Program-made: the position numbers and the translations under genes | Notes under the pieces: model-generated | Database searches by the model: none | What the model was told of the DNA's origin: nothing | The model's input: only the letters and a program-made list of their open reading frames with translations | Origin: Limisphaerales bacterium | GTDB taxonomy: Bacteria; Verrucomicrobiota; Verrucomicrobiia; Limisphaerales; SXTU01 | DNA: 64,000 nucleotides | NCBI GenBank assembly: GCA_009773355.1 | Contig: WRPG01000021.1 | Coordinates: 2,394-66,393 of the forward strand | Direction: 5' to 3' | Part shown: positions 7,144 to 61,190 of the stretch, piece by piece | Layout of the letters: every line of letters begins with the position of its first letter | Position numbering within the stretch: the stretch's first letter is position 1

Positions 7144-7294
7144 GGCGTGGAGCGCGGCCTTCAGGCCGCAGCAGGCAGCATGGCCACAGCGCTTCCGACC
7201 ACGGGAGTCATCCGCGCGTTTCTGCGGCATGAACGCCGCGCTCCAAAGCCGGCGCTTGCCGCCCCTTGGCCGCTCCGCTACAGGTGAGCATCGT

Positions 7295-11898: not shown

Positions 11899-11939
11899 GC
11901 CTCGGGTGGCACCCGCCAGAGGCGGGTGCCACCCGAGGC
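11899..11939 (-). terminator. Perfect 19-bp stem, 3-nt loop hairpin downstream of the HupE-like gene; no U-tract
   Basis: gcctcgggtggcacccgcc aga ggcgggtgccacccgaggc, 19 nt after the TAA at 11958-11960. Lacks a T-run on either strand, so intrinsic-terminator function is uncertain. Confidence 0.35.
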
Positions 11940-13292: not shown

Positions 13293-13455
13293 TGCGCTGC
13301 CTGGACATCTGATGCGTTCTCCCTCACCCCGTCCCTCTCCCGCTGGGAGAGGGAGGATTACAGCCCGCTGCGGCGACAGGTCAGTGCGCTGCGTGAAGAC
13401 GAATGCGCTCGTGGCTGTTCCCTCTCCCGGCGGGAGAGGGTCAGGGTGAGGGGGA
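13159..13455. repeat. Cluster of four GGGAGAGGG-type hairpin repeats (REP-like)
   Basis: ccctctccctttgcgaagcaaggggagaggg+ccggggtgagggg (13159-13203); ccttctcccctcgctccgcgaagggagaagg (13252-13282); ccctcaccccgtccctctcccgctgggagaggga (13321-13354, opposite orientation); tccctctcccggcgggagagggtcagggtgaggggg (13419-13455). Confidence 0.8.
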
Positions 13456-13465
13456 AAGGCCGCGC

Positions 13466-17104: not shown

Positions 17105-17263
17105 GGTTGGAACCCGTTCCGCGCCCGGCGGCTACAGCCACCCGGCGGGGACGGCGACACGGTAAGCAGACGCCGCCGGGAGGCAATGGGATTCAAGTTG
17201 TTGCGTGGGACGGTTGCGATAGGCACAATGCCGACTTGGACACCAATTGACATCCTACAAACC

Positions 17264-19119: not shown

Positions 19120-19240
19120 CCCGCCTGGGCGAGCCAGCCGGATCAAGGCCGGGGCGGCCGGTCACCGCACCTGCGCGGAGAGCCTGGAGCAGGCGGTTCC
19201 CGAGGGGACGGCCAAGGCGAGAGCCAACGAGCTGCCAAGG

Positions 19241-19407
19241 TCCGCGATTTCGGCCCTTGAACCTGCCCAGCGGATGGAGCGCGGGACTCCGGCCCGCAGC
19301 GGCCACCTCAACCCGGGGGGCGCTGCGGATATTCGCACGGTGGCTGGCGCAAGTTGCCGCTGCGGCCCGGAGGGCCGCGCTCCGGTTCAGGGGCCGAAAT
19401 CGCGGGA
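19241..19407. repeat. Long imperfect palindrome (~167 nt) in a 400-bp intergenic gap
   Basis: tccgcgatttcggcccttgaacc...gagcgcgggactccggcccgcagcggc pairs with gccgctgcggcccggagggccgcgctccggttcaggggccgaaatcgcggga. About 50 bp of potential stem. Confidence 0.65.
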
Positions 19408-19518
19408 GTTTGGGGATCGTGGATTCTCTCCCCAACCCCCTCCTCCCTCCGAGGGCGGAGCGGAAGTCCACCCGCTGGCGATGGGGCAGGATGCGCCCCG
19501 GTCGGACAGCCGCAACGG

Positions 19519-20382
19519 TCACGGCTTCCGCGCCGGCGCGGTCGCCAAAATCTTCCCGAGGATCTGCCCCATGTCCTCGTTGTGCTGCTTCGAGGCGAGG
19601 GCAAAGGCGCGCACGATGTCGAGGAGGAAGCCGGCGTTGGCGCGGTTGAAGTCGTAGAAGACGGTTTCCTTGGTCCTGGCCGGGCCGGGCGCGCGCGGTT
19701 TGCCATCGGCGGTGAGCGCCTGAGCCATTGGCAGGCAGACATAGACCATCGCCTGGTTGCCGACGCCGCGCTGGCGGGGCTTGAGCTGGATTTGAATCCA
19801 GCCGTGCTCGGTCTCGCGCAGGAACTGCGGCACCTTCTGCGTCCAGCGCGTGAAGCCGTCGGGCAGCGCGCCGCCCCTGGGGTCGAGCGGCGTCCGCTCG
19901 GTCGTGATGCCCTCGCGCTCCTCCAACGTCGCCTCGGCGAGCTTGGCCAGCCGGTCGCGCTCGCGGAGCAGGTCGTTGGTCGAGATGATGCCGAGGCGCA
20001 GCGCGTCCACGAGCAGCTTGCTCAACTCCGCGCCGAACTTCGGCTCGCCCCGGCGCGTGAACTGGATTTCCTTCACGACGTTCGGCGCGTCGGCCTCGCG
20101 GGTGTCGTAGCCGATCTGCCATTCGAGGTAGTGCGTTGCGCCGAGCGCGGTCTTGGTGGGGGCGAGCGGCTCGCCATAGCCGTCGGGCGTGCGCTGCTTG
20201 GGGCGGACCTTGCCGGTCACATCGGTGAGCGGGAGGCGGACCCGGACGGACTGGCCGGCCGGCTCAATGCGAACCAAGCGATACTCCGTGTCGGCGGCGA
20301 AGGCCGGGAGCAGGCCGGCCAGCCCGCAAACCAGCAGCCGGAACAGCGACAGGATGCCGGAGGCGCGCGGTTTGTCTTTCAT
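19519..20382 (-). CDS. Hypothetical secreted protein
   Basis: Signal peptide SGILSLFRLLVCGLAGLLPAFAA. 287 aa. ATGA overlap (20379-20382) with the upstream zinc-ribbon gene. Confidence 0.6.
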   Translation of the reverse strand: MKDKPRASGILSLFRLLVCGLAGLLPAFAADTEYRLVRIEPAGQSVRVRLPLTDVTGKVRPKQRTPDGYGEPLAPTKTALGATHYLEWQIGYDTREADAPNVVKEIQFTRRGEPKFGAELSKLLVDALRLGIISTNDLLRERDRLAKLAEATLEEREGITTERTPLDPRGGALPDGFTRWTQKVPQFLRETEHGWIQIQLKPRQRGVGNQAMVYVCLPMAQALTADGKPRAPGPARTKETVFYDFNRANAGFLLDIVRAFALASKQHNEDMGQILGKILATAPARKP

Positions 20383-21155
20383 TCCTTCTCTCCTTCCAGC
20401 CTGGCCAGCGTCGCGGCGGTGACGGGCGTGGTGCCGATGATGTTGACCTTGAAGGTCGAGCCGACGTTGGCCGGCAGGTTGCGCAAGGTGTCGGTGGCGG
20501 TGTCGCCCGTCCTGCCGCCCTGCCGCGTGAGGTCGAAGGTCAGCTTCACGTTGAAGTATTGCTTCGCCGCGTGGTTGGTCACAACGCCGACGATGTATTG
20601 GAGGTTGCCGTCCTTGGCCTTCTGCACCTCGAAGCCCAGGAGCTGCAAATCGTCGCCCGGCTGGCGCGCGGGCGGCGTGCCTTTCGCAAGGATCACCGAG
20701 GTCGCGGCGGCGACGGGCGCGGGCATCGGCGCGGGTTGGGGAGACTCCGAGGCTGGTTTGGGCTTATCGGGTTTGGGGTCGCCTTGCACAGCCTGGACGA
20801 CCTCCCCGGACCGCCGAAAGTATTTCCAAGCCTTGAGGCCGACGAGGCCGAGCACCAGCAGGCCCGCGAGCACGCTGCCGACGAGGCTGAGAATCTGTTT
20901 GGACTTCGAGCCGGCGGGGGCGGCCGCCACGGGAGCCTTGCTCGCCGAAACGGGGGCGGCCCCGGCGGGCAAGGCGACCGGCCTGGGTGGCGGAGGCGGA
21001 GGCGGGGACGGCGCGGACGTGCCAGCAGGCGCGAGGAGCGTGGTCTCGACACCGCAATGCGGGCAGGTGGTGGTGATGCCGGCGGCATGGGCGGGAAACT
21101 CGATGTGCCCCTGGCAATAGGAGCAGGCGCATTTGAGATAGCCGCTGTCGCTCAT
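20379..21155 (-). CDS. Zinc-ribbon / Pro-rich linker / single-TM protein with a C-terminal beta-rich domain
   Basis: N-terminal CxxC...CxxC ribbon (CSYCQGHIEFPAHAAGITTTCPHCG), PPPPPPP linker, TM ILSLVGSVLAGLLVLGLVGL, then a ~110-aa domain. Confidence 0.65.
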   Translation of the reverse strand: MSDSGYLKCACSYCQGHIEFPAHAAGITTTCPHCGVETTLLAPAGTSAPSPPPPPPPRPVALPAGAAPVSASKAPVAAAPAGSKSKQILSLVGSVLAGLLVLGLVGLKAWKYFRRSGEVVQAVQGDPKPDKPKPASESPQPAPMPAPVAAATSVILAKGTPPARQPGDDLQLLGFEVQKAKDGNLQYIVGVVTNHAAKQYFNVKLTFDLTRQGGRTGDTATDTLRNLPANVGSTFKVNIIGTTPVTAATLARLEGEKE

Positions 21156-25959: not shown

Positions 25960-27300
25960 TCAACCCCGCTTTGCCGCCTGCCACTCGTTCAAGCCCCGCT
26001 CTCCCGCCGCCGCGTCCAGGCCGAGCAGCTCCATCGCCTCGCCGATGAGGTAGAGCGAGCCTGCAACCAGCGCCCGCGGCTCGTCCGTCAAGGCCGCGAG
26101 CGCGTCCCGGGCCGACTCATGCGCCGTGACCCGCGCCGCCGGATTTGCCCGGCGGCAAAACTCCGCCAGCGCCGCCGGCTCCAGCGACCGGTTGCTGCCC
26201 ACCCGCACCGCCGCGATGCGCCGCGCCAGCGGGGCCAGTTCCCGGCACATGAGTTCGCAGTCCTTGTCCGCCAGCATCCCCACGAGGAGGGCGAAGGGCT
26301 GGCCGCCAAACTCGCCCTTCAGCGCCGTCACCAGTGCGCGAACGCCGTCGGAGTTGTGCGCGCCGTCGAGGAGAAACTCCCTCCCGCCCACCTTCGCCAC
26401 CTGCAAGCGCCCGGCCCACTGAACCGCTTCCAGCCCGCGCCAAAGCGCCGGCTCGCTCACCGGCAGCGTGGCCTGCAACGCCCGCACCACTGCCACCGCG
26501 AGCGCCGCGTTCCGGCGCTGGTGCGCCCCGCGCAACGGCAGCGCGACCGGAGCGCCGGTTTCCAAACCGGCTTTGCGTTCCTCCGCGACGAGCGTGAAGG
26601 GCGCTCCACACCGCTCCGCGGCGTCACGGATCACCGCCACCGCCTCCGGCGCGTCCGTCGCCGTGAGCACCGGCACGCGCGGCTTGATGATGCCCGCCTT
26701 CTCCGCCGCGATCTTCGCCAGCGTGTCCCCGAGCCACTGTTGATGGTCGAAGGCGATGTTCGTGATGACGCTCGCCAGCGGCGTCACGATGTTTGTCGCA
26801 TCCAGCCGCCCACCCAGCCCGGTCTCCCAAATCACCAGATCGCACTTCTGCTCCGCGAAATACTTCAGCGCCATGACCGTGATGAACTCGAAGAGTGTCG
26901 GTGGAGAGTTGGGGGAGTGATTAGTAATTAGTGATTGAGTGTTTGGTGGGGCGGCGGCGGCTGGCTGACTATTTACCAAACACTGATTACTAATTACTTC
27001 TTCCACCAACCGCGCCACGTCCGCCTCGCTGATCAACTCCCGATCCACCTGTATCCGCTCGCGGAACGAAACCAGATGCGGCGATGTGAACAGCCCCACG
27101 CGCAAACCCGCCGTCCGGTAAATGCTCTCCAGCATCGCGCAGGTGGAGCCTTTCCCATTTGTTCCTGCCAAATGGATGAACCGCAGCCGGTCCTGCGGAT
27201 TGCCCAGTGCCGCCGCCAGCCGCCGCGTCGTCTCCAGGCCGAACTGCGCGCCAAAGACGGCCAGCCCGTGCAGGTAATCCAGCGCTTCCGCGTAAGTCAT
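25960..27300 (-). CDS. folC: Bifunctional folylpolyglutamate synthase / dihydrofolate synthase
   Basis: P-loop HLAGTNGKGST, FTSPHLVSFRERI, WETGLGGRLDATNIV, NIAFDHQQWLG. ATG at 27300 (TTG at 27309 is an alternative). Confidence 0.88.
   Translation of the reverse strand: MTYAEALDYLHGLAVFGAQFGLETTRRLAAALGNPQDRLRFIHLAGTNGKGSTCAMLESIYRTAGLRVGLFTSPHLVSFRERIQVDRELISEADVARLVEEVISNQCLVNSQPAAAAPPNTQSLITNHSPNSPPTLFEFITVMALKYFAEQKCDLVIWETGLGGRLDATNIVTPLASVITNIAFDHQQWLGDTLAKIAAEKAGIIKPRVPVLTATDAPEAVAVIRDAAERCGAPFTLVAEERKAGLETGAPVALPLRGAHQRRNAALAVAVVRALQATLPVSEPALWRGLEAVQWAGRLQVAKVGGREFLLDGAHNSDGVRALVTALKGEFGGQPFALLVGMLADKDCELMCRELAPLARRIAAVRVGSNRSLEPAALAEFCRRANPAARVTAHESARDALAALTDEPRALVAGSLYLIGEAMELLGLDAAAGERGLNEWQAAKRG
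26917..26997. repeat. 81-nt AT-rich heptamer-based palindrome embedded in frame in folC
   Basis: gtgattagtaattagtgattgagtgtttggt ... accaaacactgattactaattac (arms differ at about 3 of 24 positions). Encodes ISNQCLVNSQPAAAAPPNTQSLITNHS between conserved FolC blocks. Confidence 0.8.
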
Positions 27301-27321: not shown

Positions 27322-28101
27322 TCAAACCCGCTCCAGCAACACCAGAAACTCCTTGTTCCCCGCCGGCCCCAGCAATGGCGATTCCGTCACGCCGCGCCAC
27401 GCGGTGCCCGGCAGGTCGGACTTCACAAACGCTTCCAGCTCCGCCAGCACGCGCGCATGAACCACCGGGTCCGTGATCACGCCCTCGCCCTTGTCCGCCT
27501 CCGCCTTGCCCGCCTCGAACTGCGGCTTCACAAGCGCCACGATGCGCCCGTCGGGAGCCAGCAGCGCCACCGCCGCCGGCAGAATCTTGCGCAGGGAAAT
27601 GAACGAGCAATCCACCACCACCAGCGGGACTGCGAACACGCCTTCATTCCGCATTCCACATTCTGCACTCCGCATTTGACCGAGCCGCTCCGCCGTCAGC
27701 TCCCGGGCATTCGTCTTCTCCAGCACCACCACGCGCGGGTCGTTGCGCAGCTTCCACGCGAGCTGCCCCTGCCCCACGTCCACCGCGAAGACCCGCGCCG
27801 CGCCGCGTTGCAGCAGGCAATCGGTGAAGCCGCCCGTGCTCGCGCCGAGGTCCACCGCCGTCAGCCCGCGCACGTCGAGAGCGAAGTGCTCCAGCGCGTG
27901 CTCCAGCTTGTGCCCGCCCCGGCTCACGAACTTCTCCGTCGCCTCGAGCGCGAGCGTGTCGGCCTCGCGCACGAGATCGCTGGCCTTGCGGGCGACCTGG
28001 CCGTTCACGCGCACCAGTCCGGCCATCACGGCGCGCTTGGCCTTCTCGCGGCTTTCGCAAAGCCCGCGCGCCACCAACGCCTGATCCAGCCGCGAATTCA
28101 T
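27322..28101 (-). CDS. tlyA: TlyA-family rRNA 2'-O-methyltransferase (S4 domain + FtsJ-like MTase)
   Basis: MNSRLDQALVARGLCESREKAKRAVMAGLVRVNG (S4), FVSRGGHKLEHAL, AVDLGASTGGFTDCLLQRGA, DCSFISLRKILP, LVKPQFEAG. Confidence 0.88.
   Translation of the reverse strand: MNSRLDQALVARGLCESREKAKRAVMAGLVRVNGQVARKASDLVREADTLALEATEKFVSRGGHKLEHALEHFALDVRGLTAVDLGASTGGFTDCLLQRGAARVFAVDVGQGQLAWKLRNDPRVVVLEKTNARELTAERLGQMRSAECGMRNEGVFAVPLVVVDCSFISLRKILPAAVALLAPDGRIVALVKPQFEAGKAEADKGEGVITDPVVHARVLAELEAFVKSDLPGTAWRGVTESPLLGPAGNKEFLVLLERV
27645..27679. repeat. Five tandem heptamers (cattccg cattcca cattctg cactccg catttga) inside tlyA
   Basis: 7-nt periodicity read directly from the sequence. Encodes QMRSAECGMRNEG, in a loop that is much shorter in TlyA proteins I recall. 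Confidence 0.7.
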
Positions 28102-29029: not shown

Positions 29030-29106
29030 GGTAGCAGCCGACGTGAGGAGGCTCTGATTCACTGGAGAATCGGATTGAAGTGAGCCTCCTCACGTCGGCT
29101 GCTACC
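29030..29106. repeat. Perfect 25-bp-arm palindrome (family shared with 41622-41692)
   Basis: ggtagcagccgacgtgaggaggctc - 27-nt loop - gagcctcctcacgtcggctgctacc, in the divergent intergenic region. Confidence 0.9.
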
Positions 29107-29178: not shown

Positions 29179-32100
29179 ATGAGCCAACGTCTCTGCCTGT
29201 TCCTCGCCGCGCTTGCCACCGCGCTTCAGCCGCTGCGCGCGCAAGACGCCGCCAAGGAAGCCCAGTTCCTCACCAACACGCGCCAACTCATCTTCGAAGG
29301 CCGGCGCAGCGGCGAAAGCTACTTCTCGGCCGACGGCAAGTTCATGGTCTTTCAGAGCGAGCGCGAGGCGGACAATCCCTTCTACCAGATTTACCTGCTG
29401 AACCTGGAGACCGGCGACGTGAACCGCGTCTCACCCGGCACCGGCAAGACCACCTGCGCCTTCCTCCGCCCCGGCAGCGACGACGTGCTCTTCGCGAGCA
29501 CCCACACCGATCCTGAGGCGAAGACCAAGCAGAAGGCCGAGTTCGAAATCCGCGCTTCCGGCAAGTCCCGCCGCTACGCGTGGGACTACGACGACCGCAT
29601 GGAAATCTTCGTGTCCAAACGCGACGGCTCGAACATCCGCCGGCTCACCGACGCTCCCGGCTACGATGCCGAGGGCAGCTACTCGCCGGACGGCAAGCTC
29701 ATCGTCTTCTGCTCGCTGCGCCATGCCTACACCGGCACGCTCTCGCCCGAGGACAAGAAGAAGCTCGAAGTGGACACCGCCTACTTCGGCGACATCTACC
29801 TGATGAACGCCGACGGCTCGAACGTCCGCCGCCTCACCAGCACCCCCGGCTACGATGGCGGGCCGTTCTTCTCCCCCGACGGCCAGCGTGTCATCTGGCG
29901 GCGATTCAACGAGAAGGGCGACACGGCGGACGTCTACACGATGAAACTCGACGGCTCCGACGTGCGCCGCCTCACCGACTTCGGCGCGATGTCCTGGGCG
30001 CCCTACTTCCACCCGTCCGGCCAATACGTCATCTACACGGCGAACAAGCACGGCTTTGGCAACTTCGAGCTGTTCCTCGTGGACGCTCTCGGCGCGAAGG
30101 AACCCGTGCGCGTGACCCACACCGACGGCTTCGACGGCCTGCCGGTCTTCTCCCCCGACGGCAAGAAACTGGCGTGGACCAGCGGCCGCACGCCGGAGAA
30201 AAACTCGCAGGTCTTCATGGCGGACTGGAACCACACGGCGGCGCTGGCGGCACTGGCACAAGCGCCGAAGCGGAGCGGAACCACGCCGGAGCTGTCACTG
30301 CAGAGAATCAAGGCTCAGGGTTTGATCAGCGTTGGGGCCCTTACCGCAGAGAGTCTTCTTCAACTCCAAAGTTATAATCCGGAAATACGTGAAGCGGATT
30401 TGCGTGGCCATGTTGGGTTTCTCGCCAGCGAGTCACTCCAAGGTCGGCTCACGGGCTCGCTCGGCGCACTAAAAGCCGCTAACTACATAGCCGAAAACTT
30501 CAAGCTCTCCGGCCTTGCTCCACTCCCGTCCGTCAGCGACTTCTTCCAACCCTTCGAGTTCAGCTCCGGCGTCCGAGTGCTGACGAATCAGAATACCGCC
30601 TCGCTCCGTGCCAGCGCTAATGCCACGCCCGCCACGCTTGCACTCGACAAGGACTTCCGCCCCCTTGCCTTCACGGCGAACGGCACCGTGGAGGGGGAAG
30701 TCGTCTTCGCCGGCTACGGCCTCTCCGTGCCTGGCAAGCTCGGGGAAGGCTATGACTCTTACAACGGCCTCGACGTGTCGAACAAGGTCGTGCTCGTGCT
30801 GCGTTACGTGCCGGAGGAAGCCGACGCCAAGCGCCGCCAGGAGCTGAACCGCTACGCCGGCCTGCGCTACAAGGCCCTCATTGCGCGCAATCGCGGCGCG
30901 AAAGCCCTGCTCGTCGTCACCGGCCCCACGTCCCCGAACGCGGGCGAACTGGCGCGGCTGACCTTCGAGACCGGTGCGAGCCACAGCGGCATCGTCTGCG
31001 CCAGCATCGGCGGCGACGTGGCGGCGAAGATGTTCACTGCCGCGGGCAAGGATTTGAAGAAGACGCAGGCCGCGCTCGACAAGGAAGACCCGCACGCGGA
31101 AGGAGCTTTCGCGCTGAAGAACGTCGCCGTGAAGCTCACCGCCGCCGTCGAGCATGTGAAGAAGGCGGACCGTAACGTCCTCGCGCACATCCCGCCTGTC
31201 GGCACCAAGGAGTATGTCATCGTCGGCGCGCATTACGACCACCTCGGCCACGGCGAGACCGGCGGCTTCGCGCGCAAGGACGAGGAAGGCAAGGTCCACC
31301 CCGGCGCGGATGACAACGCCAGCGGCACCGCCGCGCTGCTCGAACTCGCTGGAGCGCTAGCCGAAGAATTTCGGAGCGCAGGTGTCCAACCTGCGTCCGG
31401 TTCCAGCGCGCCGAAAGCCGTGGCAAACGCAGGTTGGACACTTGCGCTCCGGCGCGGCGTGCTCTTCGCCGCCTGGTCTGGCGAGGAAGTCGGCTTGATC
31501 GGCTCCTCGCACTTCGCCGAGAAGCCGCCGCTCCCGCTCTCGAACGTCGTCGCCTACGTGAACTTCGACATGGTCGGCCGCCTGCGCGACAACAAGCTGA
31601 GTCTCCAGGGCATCGGCTCCTCCCCTACGTGGCGGAAGCTGATCGAGAAGCGCAACGTCGCCGCCGGCTTCAATCTGGCCTTGCAGGAAGACCCGTATCT
31701 GCCCACCGACACCACGCCCTTCTATCCGAAGAACGTGCCGGTCATCGCCTTCTTCACCGGCAGTCACGAGGAGTATCACCGGCCCGCCGACAAGCCCGAC
31801 ACGCTGAACTACGACGGCCTCGAACGCATCGCCAAGTTCGCCCGCGCCCTCATCACCGACCTCGCCTCGGGTGCCGAGCGCCCGGCCTACGCGAAGGTCG
31901 AGAAGAAGGACGGCGGCGGCGGCCGCGAGCAGCTCCGCGCCTACCTCGGCACCATCCCCGACTACGCTCAGGAAGTAGCCGGCGTGAAGCTGAGCGGCAC
32001 CCGCGGCGGCAGCCCCGCCGACAAGGCCGGGCTGAAGGGTGGCGACGTCATCGTCGAATTCGCCGGCCAGAAGATTGCCAACATCTACGACTACACCTAT

Positions 32101-33024: not shown

Positions 33025-33034
33025 CGGCGGGGGC

Positions 33035-33129
33035 AGTATTCAGTAATCAGCGTTCAGTTTCCAGTAGGCAGTTTCCTGAGGTCGCACGGCTTGCCGCCAC
33101 TGAACACTGAAAACTGCTTGCTGAATACT
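33035..33129. repeat. Heptamer-periodic hairpin in a divergent promoter region
   Basis: Left arm tattcag taatcag cgttcag tttccag taggcag (NNNNcag x5). Right arm tgaacac tgaaaac tgcttgc tgaatac (tgNNNNc x4; with the preceding c each unit reads ctgNNNN). The arms are imperfectly complementary. Confidence 0.75.
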
Positions 33130-33186
33130 TCCTTGCTGGCCGCTGATTGCTAACCGCTCCCTCCCCGCCTACTCTGCTCACCAGCG

Positions 33187-35990: not shown

Positions 35991-36671
35991 ATGGCAAAGA
36001 TATTGGTCGTGGATGACGAACCGGATGCCGTTGAACTGGTCGAGTTCAACTTGAAGAACGCCGGCTTCGAGGTGGTCACGGCGGCGGATGGCGCAGAGGC
36101 GCTCAAGAAGGCGCGCGCGGCGCTGCCCGATCTCATCGTGCTGGACCTGATGATTCCCGAGGTGGACGGCTTGGAGGTGTGCAAGCTGCTGCGGCGCGAC
36201 GCGGCCACGGCGGGTATCCCCATTCTCATGCTCACGGCGAAGGCGGCGGAGATTGACCGTGTGCTGGGCCTCGAACTCGGCGCGGACGATTACGTGACCA
36301 AGCCGTTCAGCCCGCGCGAGCTGATGCTGCGCATCAAGGGCCTGCTGCGTCGCCGCGAGACGACCGAGGCCAAGGCGGAGCGGATGCAGTTCGGCGACCT
36401 TGTGCTCGACGTGCCCGCGCACAGCCTCACGGTGAACAACAAGCGCGTGGAGCTGACCGCCACGGAGTTCAAGCTGCTCACCATCCTCGCGCAGCGGCGC
36501 GGCCGGGTGCAATCGCGCGACCAGTTGCTCAAGGACGTGTGGGAATACGACAACGTCATAGACACGCGCACCGTGGACACGCACATGCGGCGGCTGCGGG
36601 AGAAGCTGGGCAAGGCGGCGAAGCACTTGGATACCGTGCGAGGGGTCGGCTATCGCTTTGTGGCGGGGTGA
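35991..36671 (+). CDS. OmpR/PhoB-family response regulator
   Basis: MAKILVVDDEPD...DLIVLDLMIPEVDG...LTAK (REC) and winged-helix output LTATEFKLLTILAQRRGRVQSRDQLL...VDTHMRRLREKL...VRGVGYRF. Confidence 0.9.
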   Translation: MAKILVVDDEPDAVELVEFNLKNAGFEVVTAADGAEALKKARAALPDLIVLDLMIPEVDGLEVCKLLRRDAATAGIPILMLTAKAAEIDRVLGLELGADDYVTKPFSPRELMLRIKGLLRRRETTEAKAERMQFGDLVLDVPAHSLTVNNKRVELTATEFKLLTILAQRRGRVQSRDQLLKDVWEYDNVIDTRTVDTHMRRLREKLGKAAKHLDTVRGVGYRFVAG

Positions 36672-36749
36672 GACGTAATGCGTAATGCGTAAAACGTAAG
36701 GGCCACCGGCGCTCGACGCCCTGCTTGGTTACGTTTTACGTTTTACGTC
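36672..36749. repeat. cgtaaNN/NNttacg heptamer hairpin between response regulator and kinase genes
   Basis: cgtaatg cgtaatg cgtaaaa cgtaagg - 25-nt spacer - ggttacg ttttacg ttttacg. Starts 1 nt after the regulator stop codon. Confidence 0.85.
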
Positions 36750-36778
36750 TCCCCTCCTTCCCAGCCATTCTCCACCCG

Positions 36779-40981: not shown

Positions 40982-43900
40982 TCAGCCTTTTGCAATCATC
41001 TCGTCGAGGTTCAAAAGCGCGCGGGCGAGGGCGGTCCAGGCGGCGCGGTCGTTGGCGTCGCCATCGCCTTTGCCGGCGAAGTCGGCGGCCTTGAGTTCGC
41101 CGCTGGCGAAGCGGGCGCGTTGGGTCTCGAAGAACTTCACGAGTTGGGCGCGTTCGTTGGCAGTGGGCGGGCGGGTGAGGCAGCGGCGGAAGAGGGTTTC
41201 CACACGGGTCTCGATGCTGCCGGGCTGCGCGGCGAGCTGGCGGCCGAGGGCTTGGGCGGCTTCGAGGATGACGGTGTCATTGAGCAGGGTGAGCGCTTGG
41301 AGCGGCGTGTTCGAGACGTCGCGGCGGGCGACGCAGGCTTCGCCGCTGGGGCCGTCGAAGGTGTTGAACATCGCGTAGGGCGCGGAGCGTTTGGCGAAGG
41401 TGTAGAGGCCGCGGCGGTAGCGGTCTTCGCCCTTGCTCTCGTCCCATGACTTGCCGCCATACACGCCTTCCTGCGTGACGCTCGCGGGCTGCGGCGGGAA
41501 GACGCTCGGCCCGCCAATCTTCGGCGAAAGCAGCCCGCTCGCGCGCAGGACGGAATCGCGGATGAGTTCGGCGTCGAGGCGTGAGCGGGGGAAGCGGGAG
41601 AGCAGGCGGTTGTCGGGGTCGGTAGCCGCCGAGGTGAGGAGGCGGATTGGTGGCGTGGAAGGTTCAGTCCGCCTCCTGACCTCGGCGGCTACAGCGCTGC
41701 TCTGCTGGTAAGTGGCGCTGGTCACGATGAGCTTGTGCAACAGCTTCAGCGACCAGTCATGCTTCATGAACTCCACCGCCAGCCAGTCGAGCAGCTCCGG
41801 GTGCGTCGGCGCGTCGCCTTGCAGACCGAAGTCCTCGGTGGTGCGCACGAGGCCGCGCCCGAAGAACGCGGCCCACTGGCGGTTCACGGTGACGCGCGCA
41901 GTGAGCGGGTTCTCGGGCGAGACGAGCCATTGCGCGAAGCCGAGGCGGTTCTTTGGGGCGGCGGCTGGCAATGGGTTCAAGACGCCGAGCACGGTGGGCG
42001 CGACGGCTTCCTTCGGCGACAGAAACTCGCCGCGATGATGGCGGTGCGTGGGGCGCGGGTTCTCCAGCGGGCGCTCGCGCAAGACGAGGGTGGTCTGGTG
42101 GACGGGCGGTTTGCGCAAGCGCTCGATTTCAGCCCGCGCGGATTTCAGCTCGGGCGCGACGAGGAGGAATTGTTCGCGGAGCTTGGCGCGTTGGGCGGTG
42201 GTGAGTTGCGCCTCGGGCACGCGGAGCAACGCCTCGGCCTCCTCGGTCAACTCACTGGCGGCGGCCTGCGCTTCGGTCGTGGCGGAGAGGCGGAACCGGC
42301 CCAGCGAACAGGCGTAATGGCGGCCAAACTGAAGCAGCACTTCAAGGTCGCCAGTCGCTGCGAGCGGTTGGTCGAAGTGGAAAACCGCGACGTGTCGTTC
42401 GCCAAAGCGCTCGAAGACACCCCAACCCGTTTCGGGGTTGCCATCAATCGCCAGCGCTGCGGACGACCTGTCACCGCCGAGCCAGAGCTTCGCATAGGTC
42501 TGTGATGCCCGGGCGAGCTTCACGGGCTGGCTGGCTGCCTTCACGCGGAATTCACCGAGGAAGAAATCGCCTTTGGGACCTTCGTAATACGCCATGCCTG
42601 GCCCGTGCGCGGGCAGGCGGTCGTCGGGCAAGGCTTCGAGGCGAAGCGCGGCGGTTCCGGCTAGAACGCTCTTGAAGCGAAGTGTGTAAGTGTCGTTCTT
42701 GCTGATGTCTCCGCTCGCGAAGATGGAGCTGTCTGGCTGCACCGTGAGGAGCGGGAGGTTGGACTTGGCTTCGTCGGGGCGGAGTGTCGTCCACGTCACG
42801 ACGCGGGCGCGCTCGGCTTTGAGCCATGTGGCAAATCTCCTTTCCAGATGCTTGGCTCCCGGCACCGGCGGAGTGGAGTTTGTGTCCGCCGGAAACTGTC
42901 TCGGCAGCCCGGCCAGCAGGGTGGCGGCGCGCTCCAGATTCTTGCGGTGCAGTTCATCCAGCGCCGCGTCGGGCAGGTCCTGGTCCGGCTCGTCGGCGTT
43001 GTTGAGGAAGGCCATCACGCCGTAATACTCCGTCTGGGGAATGGGATCGAACTTGTGCGTGTGGCACTGCGCGCACATCAGTGTCAGGCCCAGCCAGGTT
43101 GTGCCGGTGGTGGCCACGCGGTCGGCCATCGCGTAGAAGCGGAACTCCAGCGGGTCAATGCCGCCTTCCTCATTCAGCATCGTGTTTCGGTGGAAGCCCG
43201 TCGCGACGAGCGGGTCCAAACCTTGAACCTTGAACCTTGAACCTTGAACTGCTGGCAAGAGGTCGCCGGCGAGCTGCTGGATGGTGAACTGGTCGAAGGG
43301 AAGGCCCTCGTTCAGCGCGCGGATGACCCAGTCGCGCCAAGGCCAAATGTTGCGCGGGCGGTCTTTCTCGTAGCCGTTGGTGTCGGCGTAGCGGGCGAGG
43401 TCGAGCCACTTGCGCGCCCAGCGTTCGCCGTAGTGCGGGGAGGCGAGCAGTTTGTCCACGAGCGCGGCGATGACCTTCAGCTCACTTTCCCGCCTTCTCA
43501 CCTGCCCACTTTCGCCGGCAGCCGGTGAGAAAGTGGGAGAGCGGGAAAGTGAGAGCTGGCGCACGAAGTCATCGGCTTCCTCCGGCGTCGGCGGCAGGCC
43601 GATGAGGTCGAGGTAAAGGCGGCGGACGAGCGTGTAGTCGTCGGCGGGTGGCGACGGCTTCAAGCCTTCCTTCTCCAGCCGCGCGAGGATGAAGTGGTCA
43701 ATGGCGTTCTGCGGCCAGCCGGCTTGCTTCACCTTCGGCAATGCAGCCTGCTTCGGTTTGATGAACGCCCAGTGCGGCTGGTAATCCGCTCCGGAGGCGA
43801 CCCAGCGGCGGAACGTGTCCATCTCGGCGGGCGTGAGGTGCTTCTTCGTCTCCGGCGGCGGCATGACCTTGTTGTGGTCGGTGCTGGTGATGCGGCGGAC

Positions 43901-44158: not shown

Positions 44159-44201
44159 GACGGGAGAATAGACGAGTGGAAGGCGCGAGGGAATGCGTGA
44201 A

Positions 44202-44297
44202 AGTAGGACAGCGCGCCCCGCCTGTCTGTCTGACTGAAAGCTTCCGCTTGAGCGGGCGAAACTAGATGGTAGGTCAGGCGGGACGCGCTGACCTACT
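44202..44297. repeat. ~95-nt palindrome-ended element, copy A of 3
   Basis: agtaggacagcgcgccccgcctgtc...ccgcttgagcgg...gtcaggcgggacgcgctgacctact. The TAG stop of the ApbE gene (44293-44295) lies in the terminal arm. Confidence 0.85.
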
Positions 44298-45372
44298 TGT
44301 CGTAGAAGCGTGCGAAGCTCGGCGACTCCGAGACTTCGACGCGTTCGCCGGGCTTGCGGACGACGCGGGCGGATGCACCGGGCGTGCCGTTCACTAATGC
44401 CAACCCGCGCTCTGGGCCGACTACGCACGTCGTCGTGGAGAGGCTGTTCGCCGTCACGCAATCGCGCGCGATGACCGTCACGAGGCTGTGGTCGGTCATG
44501 CCCAGGCCCGTGTGCGGGTCCACGATGTGGGAGTAGCGCTTGCCGCCCAGCTCGACGTGCTGGAACAAATCGCCGGAGGTCGCGAAGCCGCAGTTGCGGA
44601 GCGAAAGGAACTGCGTGGGCGGGGCACCGGGCGCGTCGAGCGGCGCGAGCTCGATGCGCCAGCCGGTGCGACCCGGCGGCGGGTCGCCGAGAGCCATGTC
44701 GCCGCTGCCGGTGACGAGCGCGCGGGGGATGCCGTGACTGCGTAACTCGCGAAGCGCTTCGTCGAGCGCACGTCCCTTGGCGATGGAGCCGAGGTCGAGG
44801 CGCATTCCTGACACGAGCAGCTTCGCGGTGTGCGCGCGCGGGTCGAGGACAACCTTCTGCCAGCCGACACGGGACTTGGCCTCCGCGATGACTTCGGGCG
44901 TGGGCAGTTCGCGCTGTCGCCGCGCGCGTCGCCAAACTTGCACGAGGGGACCGACGGTGATGTCGAACGCGCCGTCCGACCGTCGCGACATGGTTTCCGC
45001 TATGTTCAGCAGGCGCCATAACTCGTCGCTCACGGGCACAGCGCAACCGCTGCCGGAGCTGCGGGACAGCAGGGTCAACTCGCTGTCATCCTCGTAGTCG
45101 CTGAAGACTTGGTTCAGCTCCGCGACGCGGGCGAAGGCGGCGCGGGCAGCGGCTTCAGCGAGGCTCGGACTCTCCGCATACAACACGATGCGGAAGGGCA
45201 GGCCCATCTGCGGCTGCTCGAACTCGAAGCGTTGGAGTGCCGATGGCGATGTGGTGCGGCAGGCATTCGCGCCAAGCAACGCGAAGGGGAGCAGGAGCAG
45301 GCTGGCGCGGCGTGATTGAAGGTGTGCGTCGGCGTGCGTCTCGGTCCGTCCCCTCACCCCGGCCCTTTCCAT
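44293..45372 (-). CDS. apbE: FAD:protein FMN transferase (ApbE family)
   Basis: AFDITVGPLV, LDLGSIAKGRALD and YSHIVDPHTGLG are ApbE signatures. ATG at 45372 (MERAGVRG...LLLLPFALLGANAC). Confidence 0.85.
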   Translation of the reverse strand: MERAGVRGRTETHADAHLQSRRASLLLLPFALLGANACRTTSPSALQRFEFEQPQMGLPFRIVLYAESPSLAEAAARAAFARVAELNQVFSDYEDDSELTLLSRSSGSGCAVPVSDELWRLLNIAETMSRRSDGAFDITVGPLVQVWRRARRQRELPTPEVIAEAKSRVGWQKVVLDPRAHTAKLLVSGMRLDLGSIAKGRALDEALRELRSHGIPRALVTGSGDMALGDPPPGRTGWRIELAPLDAPGAPPTQFLSLRNCGFATSGDLFQHVELGGKRYSHIVDPHTGLGMTDHSLVTVIARDCVTANSLSTTTCVVGPERGLALVNGTPGASARVVRKPGERVEVSESPSFARFYDK

Positions 45373-45381: not shown

Positions 45382-45448
45382 GGAGCGCAGGTGTCCAACC
45401 TGCGCGAGGTAACCGGACACGAACGCGCAGGATGGACTCCTGCGCTCC
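45382..45448. repeat. Palindrome of the ggagcgcagg-gtcca-cctgcg family (intergenic copy)
   Basis: ggagcgcaggtgtccaacctgcgcg - loop - cgcgcaggatggactcctgcgctcc. The first 22 nt are identical to the left arm of the copy inside the M28 peptidase gene (31373). Confidence 0.85.
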
Positions 45449-46461: not shown

Positions 46462-46494
46462 CACAGGAAAGGAACCGCAATGTCGGCACTTTGA

Positions 46495-46588
46495 AGTAGG
46501 ACAGTGCGTCCCGCCTGTCTTTCTGATTTCAGATCCCGCTCAAGCGGTTTCCTTCAAATGGTAGGCAGGCTGGAAGCACTGTCCTACT
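46495..46588. repeat. ~95-nt palindrome-ended element, copy B of 3
   Basis: agtaggacagtgcgtcccgcctgtc...ccgctcaagcgg...ggcaggctggaagcactgtcctact. The TAG stop of the 46584..48002 gene lies in the terminal arm. Confidence 0.85.
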
Positions 46589-48002
46589 TAACGAACGCGT
46601 AGAGTGCCGTGAGCGTGCGGACGTATATCACGTTTTCCACCAGCGCGGGCGAGGCGGAGATGCGTTCGCTGAATTCCGCCTGGTGCAGAATCTTCGGCGC
46701 GTCGCCGCCGGCATCGAGGACCGTGACCTTGCCGTTCAGCGACGCCACGTAGATGCGCCCGTCCGCCGCGACGGGCGACGCGTAGTAGCTGCCGATGGCG
46801 TTGAGCCGCTCCTGCTGGTAGTGGACCTTGCCCGTCTTCGCGTCGAAGCTCGACGCCAGCCCGCCGTCCTTCACAAGGAAGACGCGGCCGCGATAGTGCA
46901 GCGCCGACGGCACGTAGGGCAGGCCGCGCGTCTGCTTCCACGCCAAGGCGTCCTCGCTCAACTCGCCCTTGCCGCCGGGCTTCACGGCCACCAGCACGTT
47001 CTCGCCCTTGGCCATGTTGGCCGCCAGGGCATCCATGTCTTCTTTGGTGATTTTGCCGTCGCGGTTCACGTCCAGCGAGCGGAAGAACGATTCCATCTCC
47101 GTGCCCTTCATCTCGTCCGGCGTGAGCGCGCCGTCCTTGTTTTTGTCCATCTGCGACATCCCGGCCCACGTCGGCATCGTGTTGGCCTCCTTGCCCGGTG
47201 CCCAGCCGGCGAAGAAGAGCAGGCCGTCGCCGACCACCGGAGTTGTGCAGGTGAAGGACGGCAAGCCCGCCAGCGACCACCGTTCCGCGCCGGTCTTGAG
47301 GTCATAGGCCTTGAGCTTGATGGAGCCGGACATGACGACCTCGTCCACGCCCGCGCTCTTCCAGAGAATCGGCGTGCCGAAGCCGGGACCGACATCTGTG
47401 CGCGGGGCTTCCCATGCTTTCTTGCCGGTCTTCAAGTCCACCGCCAGCAGCGAGCAAGGCCCGGCCTGGTCGCGGTTCACGAGCACCACGCCGCCCGCGA
47501 GCACGGGCGAACCGCCGGAGCCGAAGCTGCCGGGCGACTGGATGGTCGGGAGCTTGTGCTGCCAGAGTTCCTTGCCGCTGAAGTCGTGGGCCACCAGCCC
47601 GGACGAGCCGAAGTAACTGATGACGGTCTTGCCATCGGTTGCGGGAGTGGATGCGGCGGGGCTGCCCTCGGTGGCGTGGAATTCTTCAAGCTGCCCGGCG
47701 GGCGCGGGGCGCTTCCAGAGCAGCTTGCCATCGCGCCGCGCGTAGCAGTGCGTCTCCAGCTTCTTGCCGTCGAAGGTCGTGAGGAAAATCCGGTCGCCCC
47801 ACACGCACGGCGAGGACGCGCCCGAGGGCACGATGTTTTTCCAAAGCTGATTCTTGCCAGGGCCGAACTCGACGGGCGGCTTGGCGGTGTCGGAGACGCC
47901 GGACGCGTTTGGCCCGCGGAACTGCGGCCACCAGGTTTCGGCGGCGAAGAGCGCGGTGTGGACAACGAAGCAGAGGGTGAGGAACAGGGTTTTCACTTTC
48001 AT
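46584..48002 (-). CDS. PQQ-like (BamB-type) beta-propeller protein with an inserted EF-hand pair
   Basis: Signal peptide MKVKTLFLTLCFVVHTALFAA. Repeated propeller strands (SSPCVWGDRIFL, GSPVLAGGVVLV, TTPVVGDGLLFF, ASPVAADGRIYV). Canonical Ca-binding loops DKNKDGALTPDE and DVNRDGKITKED. Confidence 0.8.
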   Translation of the reverse strand: MKVKTLFLTLCFVVHTALFAAETWWPQFRGPNASGVSDTAKPPVEFGPGKNQLWKNIVPSGASSPCVWGDRIFLTTFDGKKLETHCYARRDGKLLWKRPAPAGQLEEFHATEGSPAASTPATDGKTVISYFGSSGLVAHDFSGKELWQHKLPTIQSPGSFGSGGSPVLAGGVVLVNRDQAGPCSLLAVDLKTGKKAWEAPRTDVGPGFGTPILWKSAGVDEVVMSGSIKLKAYDLKTGAERWSLAGLPSFTCTTPVVGDGLLFFAGWAPGKEANTMPTWAGMSQMDKNKDGALTPDEMKGTEMESFFRSLDVNRDGKITKEDMDALAANMAKGENVLVAVKPGGKGELSEDALAWKQTRGLPYVPSALHYRGRVFLVKDGGLASSFDAKTGKVHYQQERLNAIGSYYASPVAADGRIYVASLNGKVTVLDAGGDAPKILHQAEFSERISASPALVENVIYVRTLTALYAFVK

Positions 48003-48079
48003 GGCGGCGGGATTATGCGGAAGGACGCGCGGGAGGCAAGTGTGCGGCGGTGGCATGATGGCACTTTTCGAGTTGCTCA

Positions 48080-48174
48080 AGTAGGACAGCACGTCTCGCC
48101 TGTCCCTCTGACTTTCTGTTTCCGCTCAAGCGGGGCGTTTCAAATGGAGGACAGGCTGGAAGCACTGTCCTACT
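48080..48174. repeat. ~95-nt palindrome-ended element, copy C of 3
   Basis: agtaggacagcacgtctcgcctgtc...ccgctcaagcgg...gacaggctggaagcactgtcctact. Ends 1 nt before the TGA stop of the PfkB kinase gene. Confidence 0.85.
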
Positions 48175-48175
48175 T

Positions 48176-49195
48176 TCACGGCAGCAGCAGCTCGCGGATT
48201 TGCGCCACGCTGGCGGTGCCGGTGGTGCCGAGCTGGTGGACGACGACGGATGCGGCGGCGTTCGCCAACTCGATGGCCTCGCGCAGCGTCGCGCCGGCGG
48301 CGAGCGCGGCGGTGAGGTTGGCGGTGACGGAATCGCCCGCGCCGACGATGTCAATCGGCCCACGCAAGGGATGGCAGGGGACGTGTTCCACCTCACCGCT
48401 TGGAGCCGCGCCGAGGATGCCACGCTCGGAGAGGGTGACGAAGACTTCGCGGCCGTTTTGCTTGGCCAGCGCGAGCGTGGATTCGCTGAGGCGACGCAAA
48501 TCCGCGTCGCCGGGCAATCCCGCCAGGCCGCACAACTCGGCGGCGTTCATCTTGAAAGTAACGGGCGGATACCCCCGCAGGCCGCGCCGGCAGTCCGCCA
48601 CGACCGGCGTGCCCGGGTTGCCGTGCGGGAAACCTCCCAACAGAGGCAGGATGCGCGCCGTGATGACGCCGGTGTTCGGCACGTCCACCTGGTCCATCAC
48701 GGCCACGCCGTCCACTTGCAGCCGGAGTTCTTCGATGGACTGCCAGACGCGTCCCTCGACCAACGCAGGCGTCGGTTCCCAGTTCTTGGAATCCAGCCGG
48801 CTGAGTTCCTCCGGTGGCTGGCCGGGGTGCATGAGCAGCGGCTTGCAGTAAGTGAACGTGCGTCGGAGCGGCGTCTGGCGGAAGTGCTCCAAGTCCACTC
48901 CGGGCAAAGCCGCGAGCGCGCGGTGCAGTTCGAAGCCCTCGCCGTCCACGCCGTGGAAACCCACGGGCCAAAGCTTGCCAACGCCCAGCGCGACGAGGTT
49001 GTTCAGGATGGTGCCAGCCGCGCCCGGCTGCGAGCGCACGCGAACGACGTTGTGGACGGGCAGGCCGGTCTCGATGGAGATCTCAGCCCGCGCCGGGTCA
49101 ATCTCCAGATAGCGGTCGAGGCAGAAGTCGCCGACGAGCGCGAGGCGTAACGAGGCGTAGCGGCCGGTAATTTCAGCGAAGCGGGCCGGGGTCAT
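48176..49195 (-). CDS. PfkB-family carbohydrate kinase (RfaE domain I / ribokinase-like)
   Basis: LALVGDFCLDRY, GAAGTILNNLVALG, C-terminal DIVGAGDSVTANLTAAL anion-hole motif. Confidence 0.8.
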   Translation of the reverse strand: MTPARFAEITGRYASLRLALVGDFCLDRYLEIDPARAEISIETGLPVHNVVRVRSQPGAAGTILNNLVALGVGKLWPVGFHGVDGEGFELHRALAALPGVDLEHFRQTPLRRTFTYCKPLLMHPGQPPEELSRLDSKNWEPTPALVEGRVWQSIEELRLQVDGVAVMDQVDVPNTGVITARILPLLGGFPHGNPGTPVVADCRRGLRGYPPVTFKMNAAELCGLAGLPGDADLRRLSESTLALAKQNGREVFVTLSERGILGAAPSGEVEHVPCHPLRGPIDIVGAGDSVTANLTAALAAGATLREAIELANAAASVVVHQLGTTGTASVAQIRELLLP

Positions 49196-49197
49196 GA

Positions 49198-49298
49198 GAC
49201 GGAATGCGTAATGGGTAATGCGTAAAACGTAAGGCGGGCGTTTGAACCCGTGACGCGCGTGGTGACTGGGTTACGCATTACGTTTTACGTTTTACTCC
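49198..49298. repeat. cgtaaNN/NNttacg heptamer hairpin
   Basis: cggaatg cgtaatg ggtaatg cgtaaaa cgtaagg - spacer - ggttacg cattacg ttttacg ttttact. Fills the whole gap between two co-oriented genes. Confidence 0.85.
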
Positions 49299-49299
49299 T

Positions 49300-61162: not shown

Positions 61163-61190
61163 CCTTACGTTTTACGCATTACGGATTACC
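61163..61190. repeat. Single arm of the NNttacg heptamer repeat
   Basis: ccttacg ttttacg cattacg gattacc, starting 2 nt after the TAG stop. No complementary arm nearby. Confidence 0.75.

Follow-up and report, generated by a model that had tools for sequence, protein, structure and literature searches.

Between and inside the genes of a Limisphaerales chromosome lie hairpins whose arms are built from tandem seven-nucleotide words, and the question that they raise is which kind of repeat they are and what keeps them there. We studied them in a 64-kb stretch of DNA (the window, meaning the whole stretch analysed; 66% GC, 0.664), which carries ordinary chromosomal genes and was assigned to Limisphaerales (Verrucomicrobiota) from the names carried by the close homologues of its FolC. 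Repeats were called by Tandem Repeats Finder (TRF) and by an inverted-repeat scan, which gave the arm pairs I3, I5, I14/15, I19 and I25; a tract was counted where at least 16 of 21 positions matched at a given lag, with dinucleotide shuffles as the control, and flanking genes were named by Pfam. The account that we favour, and to which we give about an even chance of being right, is that the hairpins are labile and nearly neutral palindromic repeats, comparable to the repetitive extragenic palindromes (REPs) and shaped by slippage, which represent the elements of this chromosome similar to the STRR (short tandemly repeated repetitive) sequences.

The tract scan showed that the period-7 repeats are real and non-random. 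The window held 9 period-7 tracts against 0.2 in the shuffles; lags 4, 5, 8, 10, 11 and 13 gave 0 tracts each, and the only other raised lags were multiples of three, from coding repeats. The motif CGTAANNCGTAA was matched 13 times (0.01 expected) and TCAGN3TCAGN3TCAG, with at most one mismatch, 5 times (0.29 expected). TRF located period-7 arrays of 2.6-4.9 copies at 26916, 27645, 33098, 36673, 36729, 43219, 49203, 49278, 62650 and 62700, and the inverted-repeat scan located hairpins at 33032-33132, 36661-36767, 49210-49300, 62631-62723 and 26916-26998. The GC content was 0.28-0.47 in the arms and 0.66-0.79 in the loops. A census of ten related Limisphaerales contigs (178 kb) gave 16 period-7 tracts against 0.8 expected, the other non-triplet periods staying at the chance level of 0-1 tracts. 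Several points of the first-pass annotation, made from the letters of the window, were borne out by these results: the elements that it named all lay at the coordinates given when the sequence was read, period-7 tracts are enriched over shuffled controls, they are dispersed beyond the window, and they are richer in AT than their surroundings.

Its proposal of a single dispersed family did not survive, since several word classes were found instead, which have their period in common but not their words. The window has at least the classes CGTAANN and TNNTCAG/AGTRATT, plus single arrays (CATTCCG type and AACCTTG). The unit of class B (CGTAANN words) consists of CGTAA and two variable bases, nearly always TG or AA (CA or TT in the other arm), and forms the hairpins at 36672, 49198 and 62641 and a lone arm at 61165. 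Classes A and A' (units ending in CAG or TAG, such as TATTCAG, TAATCAG and TAATTAG) form the hairpin at 33035 and one in folC. In the 64 kb, class B occupies four loci and class A/A' two, and the unit types CGTAATG and CGTAAAA recur at four loci.

The intergenic elements were found in varied settings: between a divergent gene pair, within an operon, filling a stop-to-ATG spacer, after a terminator, and 3 nt past a stop codon. The class A hairpin (33028-33136, arms within 33035-33129; no strand assigned) separates divergent HAD-hydrolase (ATG at 33024, minus strand) and TPR (ATG at 33187) genes, its right end being 51 nt from the latter ATG. Its left arm (33035-33069) is made of the NNNNCAG units TATTCAG, TAATCAG, CGTTCAG, TTTCCAG and TAGGCAG, and its right arm (33099-33129) of the CTGNNNN units seen in ACTGAAC, ACTGAAA, ACTGCTT and GCTGAAT, around a GC-rich loop; as inverted repeat I5 it has 34-nt arms that are 79% complementary, and the RNA folds with a minimum free energy (MFE) of -44.6 kcal/mol (z = -4.71). 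The class B hairpin at 36665-36757 (I3, I21; no strand assigned) lies inside a response-regulator/histidine-kinase (RR-HK) operon. Its left arm (36672-36699) reads GACGTAA, TGCGTAA, TGCGTAA, AACGTAA and its right arm (36729-36749) TTACGTT, TTACGTT, TTACGTC, so disposed that at least 6 pairs and then one mismatch recur every 7 nt of the stem (MFE -45.0 kcal/mol, z = -4.62); outside the arms, a GGGG/CCCC clamp overlaps the stop codon of the response regulator (TGA 36669-36671), and 22 nt separate the hairpin end from the histidine-kinase ATG (36779).

Three further class B elements complete the intergenic set. The hairpin at 49196-49300 (I19; no strand assigned) fills the spacer upstream of a PfkB kinase gene, between the upstream-gene stop (49300-49302) and the PfkB ATG (49193-49195), both on the minus strand. 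Its arms cover 49198-49232 (CGTAANN type) and 49271-49296 (NNTTACG type), and the gene-sense strand folds with z = -2.80, less well than the plus strand (-40.4 for the plus strand versus -29.6 kcal/mol). The hairpin at 62631-62725 (arms 62642-62673 and 62693-62719; I14, I15, I22; no strand assigned; MFE -46.1 kcal/mol, z = -5.47) lies 121 nt past a stop and 49 nt before an ilvD/edd-like ATG (62772), and is preceded by a canonical intrinsic terminator (62544-62573) after a DUF1501 gene. The lone arm, NNTTACG x4 at about 61165-61190 on the plus strand (TTACGTT, TTACGCA, TTACGGA, TTACC), begins 3 nt past the stop of a PSD1 gene (TAG 61159-61161), with 31 nt between its end and the DUF1501 ATG (61222); no inverted partner was found for it, and its fold is unstructured (z = +2.0). 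The earlier statement that the tracts lie within 1-3 nt of stop or start codons was correct for 36672, for both ends of 49198 and for 61163, and incorrect for 62641 and for the right end of 33035.

Comparison of the 33035 hairpin among six independent assemblies at 98-100% identity to the window showed no difference; the elements are therefore not hypermutable or fast contingency loci at that scale, and we rejected hypervariable contingency loci as an explanation at this level of identity. The same constancy bears on the idea that the elements are a chance likeness or an artefact of metagenome assembly. The exact-match contigs of the window do come from sequencing-run assemblies, the relatives are metagenome assemblies, and short-read assembly is prone to errors at palindromes and tandem repeats. 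However, the shuffles gave 0.01-0.3 matches against 5-13 observed, the 33035 hairpin is the same in all six assemblies, orthologous copies occur in other samples, and the in-frame copies described below keep long conserved open reading frames (ORFs) open in more than 100 homologues, so that an artefact is extremely improbable.

Copies inside genes had been proposed at folC, tlyA and the array at 43219, and all three translate as in-frame read-throughs. The class A' hairpin of folC (26905-27005, minus strand; I25; z = -5.33) has its arms, read on the plus strand, at 26916-26943 (AGTGATT, AGTAATT, AGTGATT ...) and 26974-26998, and translates as ..VISNQCLVNSQPAAAAPPNTQSLITNHSPNSPP... Comparison of 120 Limisphaerales FolC homologues showed that nearly all carry an insert at this one site, made of other heptamer words or other hairpin families, and that the shortest homologues have none. 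The arm translations ISNQCLVIS...TQSLITNHSP are kept in close relatives with a variable loop, other homologues read VFSVQCSVFS, which corresponds to TGTTCAG units, and in more distant homologues the insert consists of translated hairpin repeats of quite a different kind. In the folC DNA of the relatives (cited by L numbers), L128 has four perfect TGTTCAG units without a second arm and L129 has one left unit, a 21-nt difference that keeps the frame. The unit that would bring TAA in frame reads TGTTTGG instead, a mark of selection for an open frame. The insert region is longer than in the Thermotoga maritima FolC structure (1o5z) and falls in a variable loop.

The two other intragenic arrays of the window are unpaired. 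The CATTCCG-type array of tlyA (27645-27676, minus strand; 4.6 copies by TRF, without a partner arm) encodes part of a 14-residue insertion (QMRSAECGMRNEGV) that matches exactly a gap in the Mycobacterium tuberculosis TlyA structure (7s0s). At the same site, L127 and L129 have shorter period-7 tracts of other words, whose units change in concert, successive units being alike (AGCGGTC in L127, AGCTTTC in L129). The AACCTTG x4.4 array (43219-43249, minus strand; 100% matches by TRF) lies in a PSCyt1/PSCyt2/PSD1 gene (40982 to about 44110), reads TTCAAGG on the coding strand, and encodes AVQGSRFKVQG in frame. The paralogue was too divergent for comparison at this position, and orthologues were used; these are equal in length at the array site, which is perfect in the window, degenerate in L212 and occupied by a CCAAACC array in L211. 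Fold z-scores showed no RNA structure in these two arrays or in the lone arm at 61165. In the ten related contigs, 12 of the 16 period-7 tracts lie inside ORFs and in frame according to the gene tables, which contradicts the proposal that the tracts sit mainly at gene boundaries. Inside genes, the copies were found in loops with the frame kept, and their repeated occurrence at the same coding sites is explained by the small number of loops that tolerate insertions.

Comparison of the RR-HK spacer among relatives showed that the site persists while its element turns over, a behaviour that we did not find in the literature searched. The spacer measures 107-126 nt and, among genomes that are about 85-92% identical, holds three unrelated complete hairpins: the window and L214 have class B, L213 has class A (CAGTATC, CAGCAAC ... 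CTGATCA, CTGAACA) and L539-541 have class A' (AGTGATT, AGTAATT, AGTGCTT ...), with an A' remnant in L215. Each allele starts directly after GGGGTGA and ends at a C-run, the GGGG/CCCC clamp being present in all. The gene identities give the tree (((window,L539),L213),L214),L215, and because of this tree class B is placed as ancestral at the site and as replaced at least twice. The words AGTGATT and AGTAATT of the L539-541 allele are those of the window's folC element. A search of related genomes for the same words, which the first-pass annotation had suggested, succeeded for class B in L214 and for AGTGATT/AGTAATT in L539, and returned other words at many shared sites.

Turnover was also seen at other sites. 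In the orthologues L210, L211 and L212, the PfkB spacer is occupied by a different hairpin family, with arms of repeated GCACAAAGAG-like words (L210 9868-10000, L211 8144-8255, L212 2524-2611); tandem-unit arms may therefore be a general way of building hairpins in this clade, beyond period 7. At 62641, a segment of about 150 nt with the hairpin is missing in L131, L133 and L134, which retain both flanking genes. About 55 nt inserted along with this hairpin (62576-62640) resemble the small perfect palindrome GCCTCGGGTGGCACCCGCC/GGCGGGTGCCACCCGAGGC at 11899-11939, and the spacer is therefore a mosaic of repeats, as in bacterial interspersed mosaic elements (BIMEs). L130 and L137 carry the lone arm at 61165 intact; in L131, L133 and L134 it has decayed, and relatives further away lack it. 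At the MetRS site, L214 has a GGGTCTA-type hairpin, and L215, L539 and L540 have a lone AACTCTC array.

An element is an AT-rich array of 3-5 imperfect 7-nt units, each with a core of 4-5 nt (CGTAA or TCAG/AGT) and 2-3 variable positions, and the array is usually one of an inverted pair around a unique GC-rich spacer. The arms being an inverted pair, either DNA strand, or the RNA, can therefore fold into a long stem broken at every seventh position. The elements are dispersed, and they are gained, lost and exchanged over evolutionary time at a limited set of permissive sites, namely short spacers near stop and start codons and protein surface loops, where only frame-preserving and stop-free versions survive. 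According to the account that we favour, they would be non-coding and selfish or nearly neutral, akin to REP/BIME. Replication slippage would change the number of units freely between genes and, inside genes, three units (or a multiple of three) at a time; variants of the unit would spread along the array by concerted evolution, and intrastrand template switching would keep the two arms complementary. Any effect of the hairpins is probably generic and of the kind proposed for REP and STRR hairpins: they might protect the upstream mRNA or damp the downstream cistron, for example in the RR-HK spacer.

The persistence of a hairpin at the RR-HK, PfkB-upstream and folC sites, with an interior that appears free to be rebuilt from any heptamer word, could also be read as the work of selection, the elements being cis-acting hairpins that punctuate operons, stabilise messages or tune translation, or arrays of a 7-nt motif for a protein that binds RNA or single-stranded DNA. 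This reading would agree with the G4/C4 clamp at the response-regulator stop in all alleles, with a class B hairpin better conserved than synonymous sites, with units of constant core and variable spacer positions, with positions that adjoin stop and start codons, and with the similar roles suggested for STRR (PMC2670836) and TAACTGA repeats (PMC4679880). We nevertheless consider it rather unlikely. The contexts are mixed (divergent promoter, intra-operon, post-terminator, ORFs and lone arms), close relatives can do without the 62641 hairpin and the lone arm, the few insertion-tolerant loops explain the coincidence of coding sites, and the gene-sense RNA folds no better than the antisense, which is much better in 2 of 4 cases.

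The terminator role suggested by the first-pass annotation was abandoned. The terminator scan made no intrinsic terminator call at the 33035 and 36672 hairpins, its sole match in the 62641 hairpin was a weak 7-pair stem within the loop, no U-tract was found after the intergenic hairpins, and the separate terminator at 62544-62573 already precedes the hairpin at 62641. The window gave 0 matches to Rfam 15 at the gathering threshold, and the tRNA/tmRNA scan gave no match. In a comparison of the two strands, all five hairpins folded better as the plus strand, whichever way the genes run (29 versus 10 G-U pairs in total), and on the plus strand 4 of 5 hairpins are flanked by a G-run beyond the left arm and by a CT-run beyond the right arm. 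There was thus no sign of RNA-level selection on the gene-sense strand. The pattern of these five elements suggests a polarity of the DNA strand, possibly linked to replication, rather than selection on mRNA.

Several results weigh against the favoured account of labile, nearly neutral repeats. The class B hairpins of the window and L214 are identical at 70 of 76 nt (92%), loop included, over flanking genes whose third codon positions are 64-70% identical, and the rest of the RR-HK spacer is less conserved than the hairpin; this looks like constraint or recent exchange, not neutrality. The repeated replacement at identical nucleotides, with the GGGG/CCCC clamp kept, could be a sign of selection for a hairpin at that place, and units of constant core and variable spacer could be recognised by a protein. 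As for dispersal, copies at different loci share their arms and not their loops, no sharply conserved termini of the kind expected from a cut-or-copy miniature inverted-repeat transposable element (MITE) were seen, and no convincing target-site duplication was found at the single filled/empty site (62641 versus L131, L133 and L134), where the insert also holds another small palindrome. Neither the window nor about 240 kb of related contigs showed a transposase gene by gene tables and Pfam. The scope of the comparison, a 64-kb window and fragments of relatives that are all metagenome assemblies, also weighs on this side. The motif GGGGWSAS, reported at terminal repeats beside genes similar to those of the REP-associated tyrosine transposases (RAYTs; PMC3733652), flanks the 36672 hairpin on both sides, the left copy being the coding end of the response regulator, and the window shows no excess of it (11 matches versus 18.5 expected); it is no more than a lead.

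We then considered the occurrence of these repeats beyond the clade. A scan for CGTAANN x4 with one genome per species gave at least 120 loci, among whose phyla are Chloroflexota, Cyanobacteria, Bacteroidota, Acidobacteriota, Planctomycetota and Verrucomicrobiota, and which also include deltaproteobacterial groups, Halomonas, Ruminococcus and others. Among the matches listed, the 856 kb of sequence around the loci held 307 period-7 tracts against 0-30 for other periods; 141 period-7 tracts, in 62 of 120 loci, had words other than CGTAA, with periods 5, 8, 10 and 11 rare; and the window's unit types CGTAAAA and CGTAATG (ending ..CGTAAGGG) were found in some loci, for example L090, L097, L107, L120 and L121. 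An inverted partner lay within 200 nt of 126 of 357 period-7 tracts (35%) among these matches, the reverse-only and complement-only controls giving 12 and 16 (3-5%). A rule of orientation was rejected, since CGTAA-first and TTACG-first orders both occur across phyla (14 versus 7 among the matches listed). In viral contigs, CGTAA gave 97 loci at period 7, 49 at period 8 and more than 120 at period 6, and the scrambled word GCATA gave 56 at period 7; the preference for word and period is weak there, and phages are not an obvious vector.

This diversity of words, in the clade and in other phyla, is what would be expected if the repeats were purely local simple sequences, arising by slippage on a chance 7-nt duplication at a period favoured by the replicase, with the second arm made by template switching, and with nothing moved or selected. 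Perfect arrays beside degenerate ones, differences in whole units, locus-specific loops, the lack of a target-site duplication or transposase in our searches, and the constant length of the PSCyt site in three orthologues with homogenised and degenerate versions all agree with such an origin, and polymerase slippage has been proposed as a cause of heptanucleotide repeats (Mrazek 2007, as relayed in PMC4679880). However, the CGTAATG and CGTAAAA units at four loci in 64 kb and the AGTGATT/AGTAATT arms at two unrelated loci are poorly explained by independent local events, as are three unrelated hairpins in one RR-HK spacer and an ancestral class B hairpin that is nearly unchanged in its most distant carrier. 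Regrowth of a complementary pair of 4+4 units from nothing, twice in the time available, seems unlikely, and single-unit steps in ORFs would be frameshifts. We therefore regard a purely local origin as unlikely.

A last alternative is that the heptamer-arm hairpins form one cross-phylum class produced by a dedicated process and not by generic slippage. Candidate processes would be the copying of 7-nt units from a template onto the two 3' ends of a break, with an inverted pair around filler DNA as the direct outcome, or the hairpin-targeted replacement of a cassette by an HUH-type enzyme. If true, this would explain the shared architecture and the unit types CGTAAAA and CGTAATG in Verrucomicrobiota, Planctomycetota, Chloroflexota and others, the third of period-7 tracts that are inverted pairs among the matches listed, the swaps of whole hairpins at identical nucleotides, and the single strand polarity of all five hairpins. 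We hold it to be doubtful, and very much a minority possibility.

This lineage offers a GC-rich host in which AT-rich arms stand out and a natural series of alleles in close relatives (RR-HK spacer and FolC, TlyA, MetRS and PSCyt loops), and the inverted-pair form is common, not exceptional, among the cross-phylum matches listed. The repeats account for odd low-complexity inserts in the housekeeping proteins of metagenome-assembled Verrucomicrobia, and they point to spots at which an assembly or a gene call may be interrupted.

Other hairpins were observed in the window. Two start with GTAG, at 29030-29106 (GGTAGCAGCCGACGTGAGGAGGCTC, 25-nt arms, 100% complementary) and at 41622-41692 (GTAGCCGCCGAGGTGAGGAGGCGGATTG, 93%), and resemble the GTAG-tagged REPs of Opitutus terrae (PMC3733652); the second is in frame in the PSCyt/PSD1 gene (..VAAEVRRRTEPSTPPIRLLTSAAT..), where the L212 orthologue has a period-7 tract. 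In the same gene, a hairpin at 43481-43553 (CTCACTTTCCCGCCTTCTCACCTGCCCAC / GTGAGAAAGTGGGAGAGCGGGAAAGTGAG) is in frame and adds about 19 residues that are absent from L211, L212 and the paralogue, L212 having a period-7 tract at the site. The family AAGTAGGACAG..CCCGCCTG / CAGGC..CTGTCCTACTT has three copies (44201-44298, 46494-46589 and 48079-48175) in three consecutive spacers of the minus-strand string PfkB, PQQ-repeat, ApbE and PSCyt, each spacer of which holds a long hairpin when the heptamer hairpin at 49198 is counted; translations of this family (..DRQDACPT..) fill the FolC insert site of more distant homologues. The family GGAGCGC(A/G)GG...CC(T/G)GCGCTCC was found at 31372-31451, 45382-45448, 7148-7245 and 19276-19383, its 31372 copy being in frame in the M28 peptidase domain of a tricorn-like protease gene (..RSAGVQPASGSSAPKAVANAGWTLALR..) and lengthening the Pfam match.

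Clusters at 13159-13456 and 19216-19431 consist of palindromes, nested or side by side, whose words are CCCTCTCCC/GGGAGAGGG and others related to them, with several copies of GGGGWSAS at the cluster ends. The second cluster adjoins an ORF (19519-20763) with a C-terminal R.Pab1-like restriction-endonuclease domain (E = 3.5e-11). A 1037-codon ORF on the minus strand (14018-17131) has no Pfam match and many 12-36-nt tandem repeats, with a strong AT skew (-0.53) in the 14-16 kb bin, and probably encodes a low-complexity repeat protein. The cumulative GC skew (about 24000-58000) has its minimum near 33-34 kb and rises to about 58 kb; no origin markers, dnaA included, were seen, and this course may reflect gene orientation only. 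A contig labelled as an uncultured Bifidobacteriaceae metagenome-assembled genome (L051, 3-707) is 79% identical to window positions 3252-3956, has a TTACGAT x4 array, and is probably a mis-binned Verrucomicrobia contig.

Several known systems are close to these elements, STRR among them. Known STRR words are STRR1 (CCCCAGT), TTGGTCA and STRR3 (CAACAGT), and the class A words TNNTCAG (..CAGT..) share the CAGT core of STRR1 and STRR3; to go by the title of a 1997 report by Vioque, an STRR is also said to lie inside a structural RNA gene, which would be a precedent for intragenic copies. As in STRR, the window has tandem 7-nt units of several word classes that are dispersed, mostly intergenic, and often form hairpins between adjacent genes (PMC2670836). 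In cyanobacteria, such hairpins were described in the hupS-hupL spacer and the hoxW promoter, with suggested roles in transcript stability and translational coupling (PMC2670836). The window elements differ from STRR in their words (CGTAANN, TNNTCAG/AGTRATT, CATTCCG and AACCTTG) and host (Limisphaerales, 66% GC), in their imperfect units with a constant core and 2-3 variable positions, in their copies in frame in housekeeping proteins, and in the documented replacement of alleles at fixed sites.

The excess of 7-nt arrays, specific to period 7 among the non-triplet periods, is also found in the long simple sequence repeats (LSSRs) such as the TAACTGA and GGGAATC repeats. According to Mrazek (2007), as relayed in PMC4679880, heptanucleotides lead the long simple repeats in abundance in most genomes with many repeats of 5-11 nt. 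TAACTGA repeats, found just upstream of start codons in Beggiatoaceae and also in cyanobacteria and Bacteroidetes, are likewise mainly intergenic near starts and stops and phylogenetically scattered; a few lie inside ORFs, binding by a post-transcriptional regulator was suggested for them, and they have spread 'but no mechanism is evident' (PMC4679880). GGGAATC repeats of Xanthomonas include inverted pairs, as do ours (PMC4692102). On the opposite strand and with the register shifted, TAACTGA becomes TTATCAG, which differs at one or two positions from TAATCAG and TATTCAG of the window, and a stop triplet in a 7-nt unit hits all three frames of an array, as with CGTAANN here and, per MacGregor, with TAACTGA. 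In Beggiatoa, the roughly 170 sets include only 1 indirect repeat, whereas most intergenic copies of the window are inverted pairs. The window arrays are AT-rich without G-tracts, unlike the G-rich GGGAATC and GGGGAYT repeats of Xanthomonas and Nostoc that were studied as quadruplex formers, and unlike other LSSRs they are short (3-5 units) and imperfect.

REPs are palindromes of 20-40 bp with a conserved GTAG or CGTC tag that are linked to RAYT transposases, and the effects proposed for them, as in Escherichia coli, are protection of mRNA 3' ends and operon polarity. The heptamer hairpins are longer (75-105 nt), have tandem-unit arms and carry no GTAG tag, and neither the window nor the gene tables of the related contigs showed a RAYT gene. 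They resemble REP, BIME and REPIN elements as dispersed palindromes of variable presence that fill short spacers, form mosaics and occur inside genes at recurring sites (PMC3733652). Intragenic REPs are documented, and the verrucomicrobium Opitutus terrae has abundant GTAG-tagged REPs, which can also lie within genes at recurring sites (PMC3733652). Like MITEs, the heptamer hairpins are small, non-coding, hairpin-forming and dispersed, with presence or absence between relatives. A MITE family is marked by a conserved interior, by defined terminal inverted repeats and by target-site duplications; the loops of the heptamer hairpins are unrelated between loci and match only their own orthologue, and their termini are not sharply conserved. 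Rickettsia palindromic elements (RPEs), of about 100-150 bp, have a conserved full-length consensus without tandem-unit arms and are not known outside Rickettsia; like the heptamer hairpins, they lie in frame in conserved and even essential proteins, to which they add a peptide in a surface region, and unlike them they have no tandem-unit arms and no sequence relation to ours. The analogy to STRR drawn by the first-pass annotation was apt as regards heptamer hairpins between genes (PMC2670836), its restriction to heterocystous cyanobacteria was too narrow, and its statement that no equivalent is described for this lineage stands, as we found no description of heptamer hairpins in Verrucomicrobia in the literature searched. 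The window elements work like STRR without being members of that family by word or lineage, and what is new is the lineage in which this known kind of heptanucleotide repeat is found.

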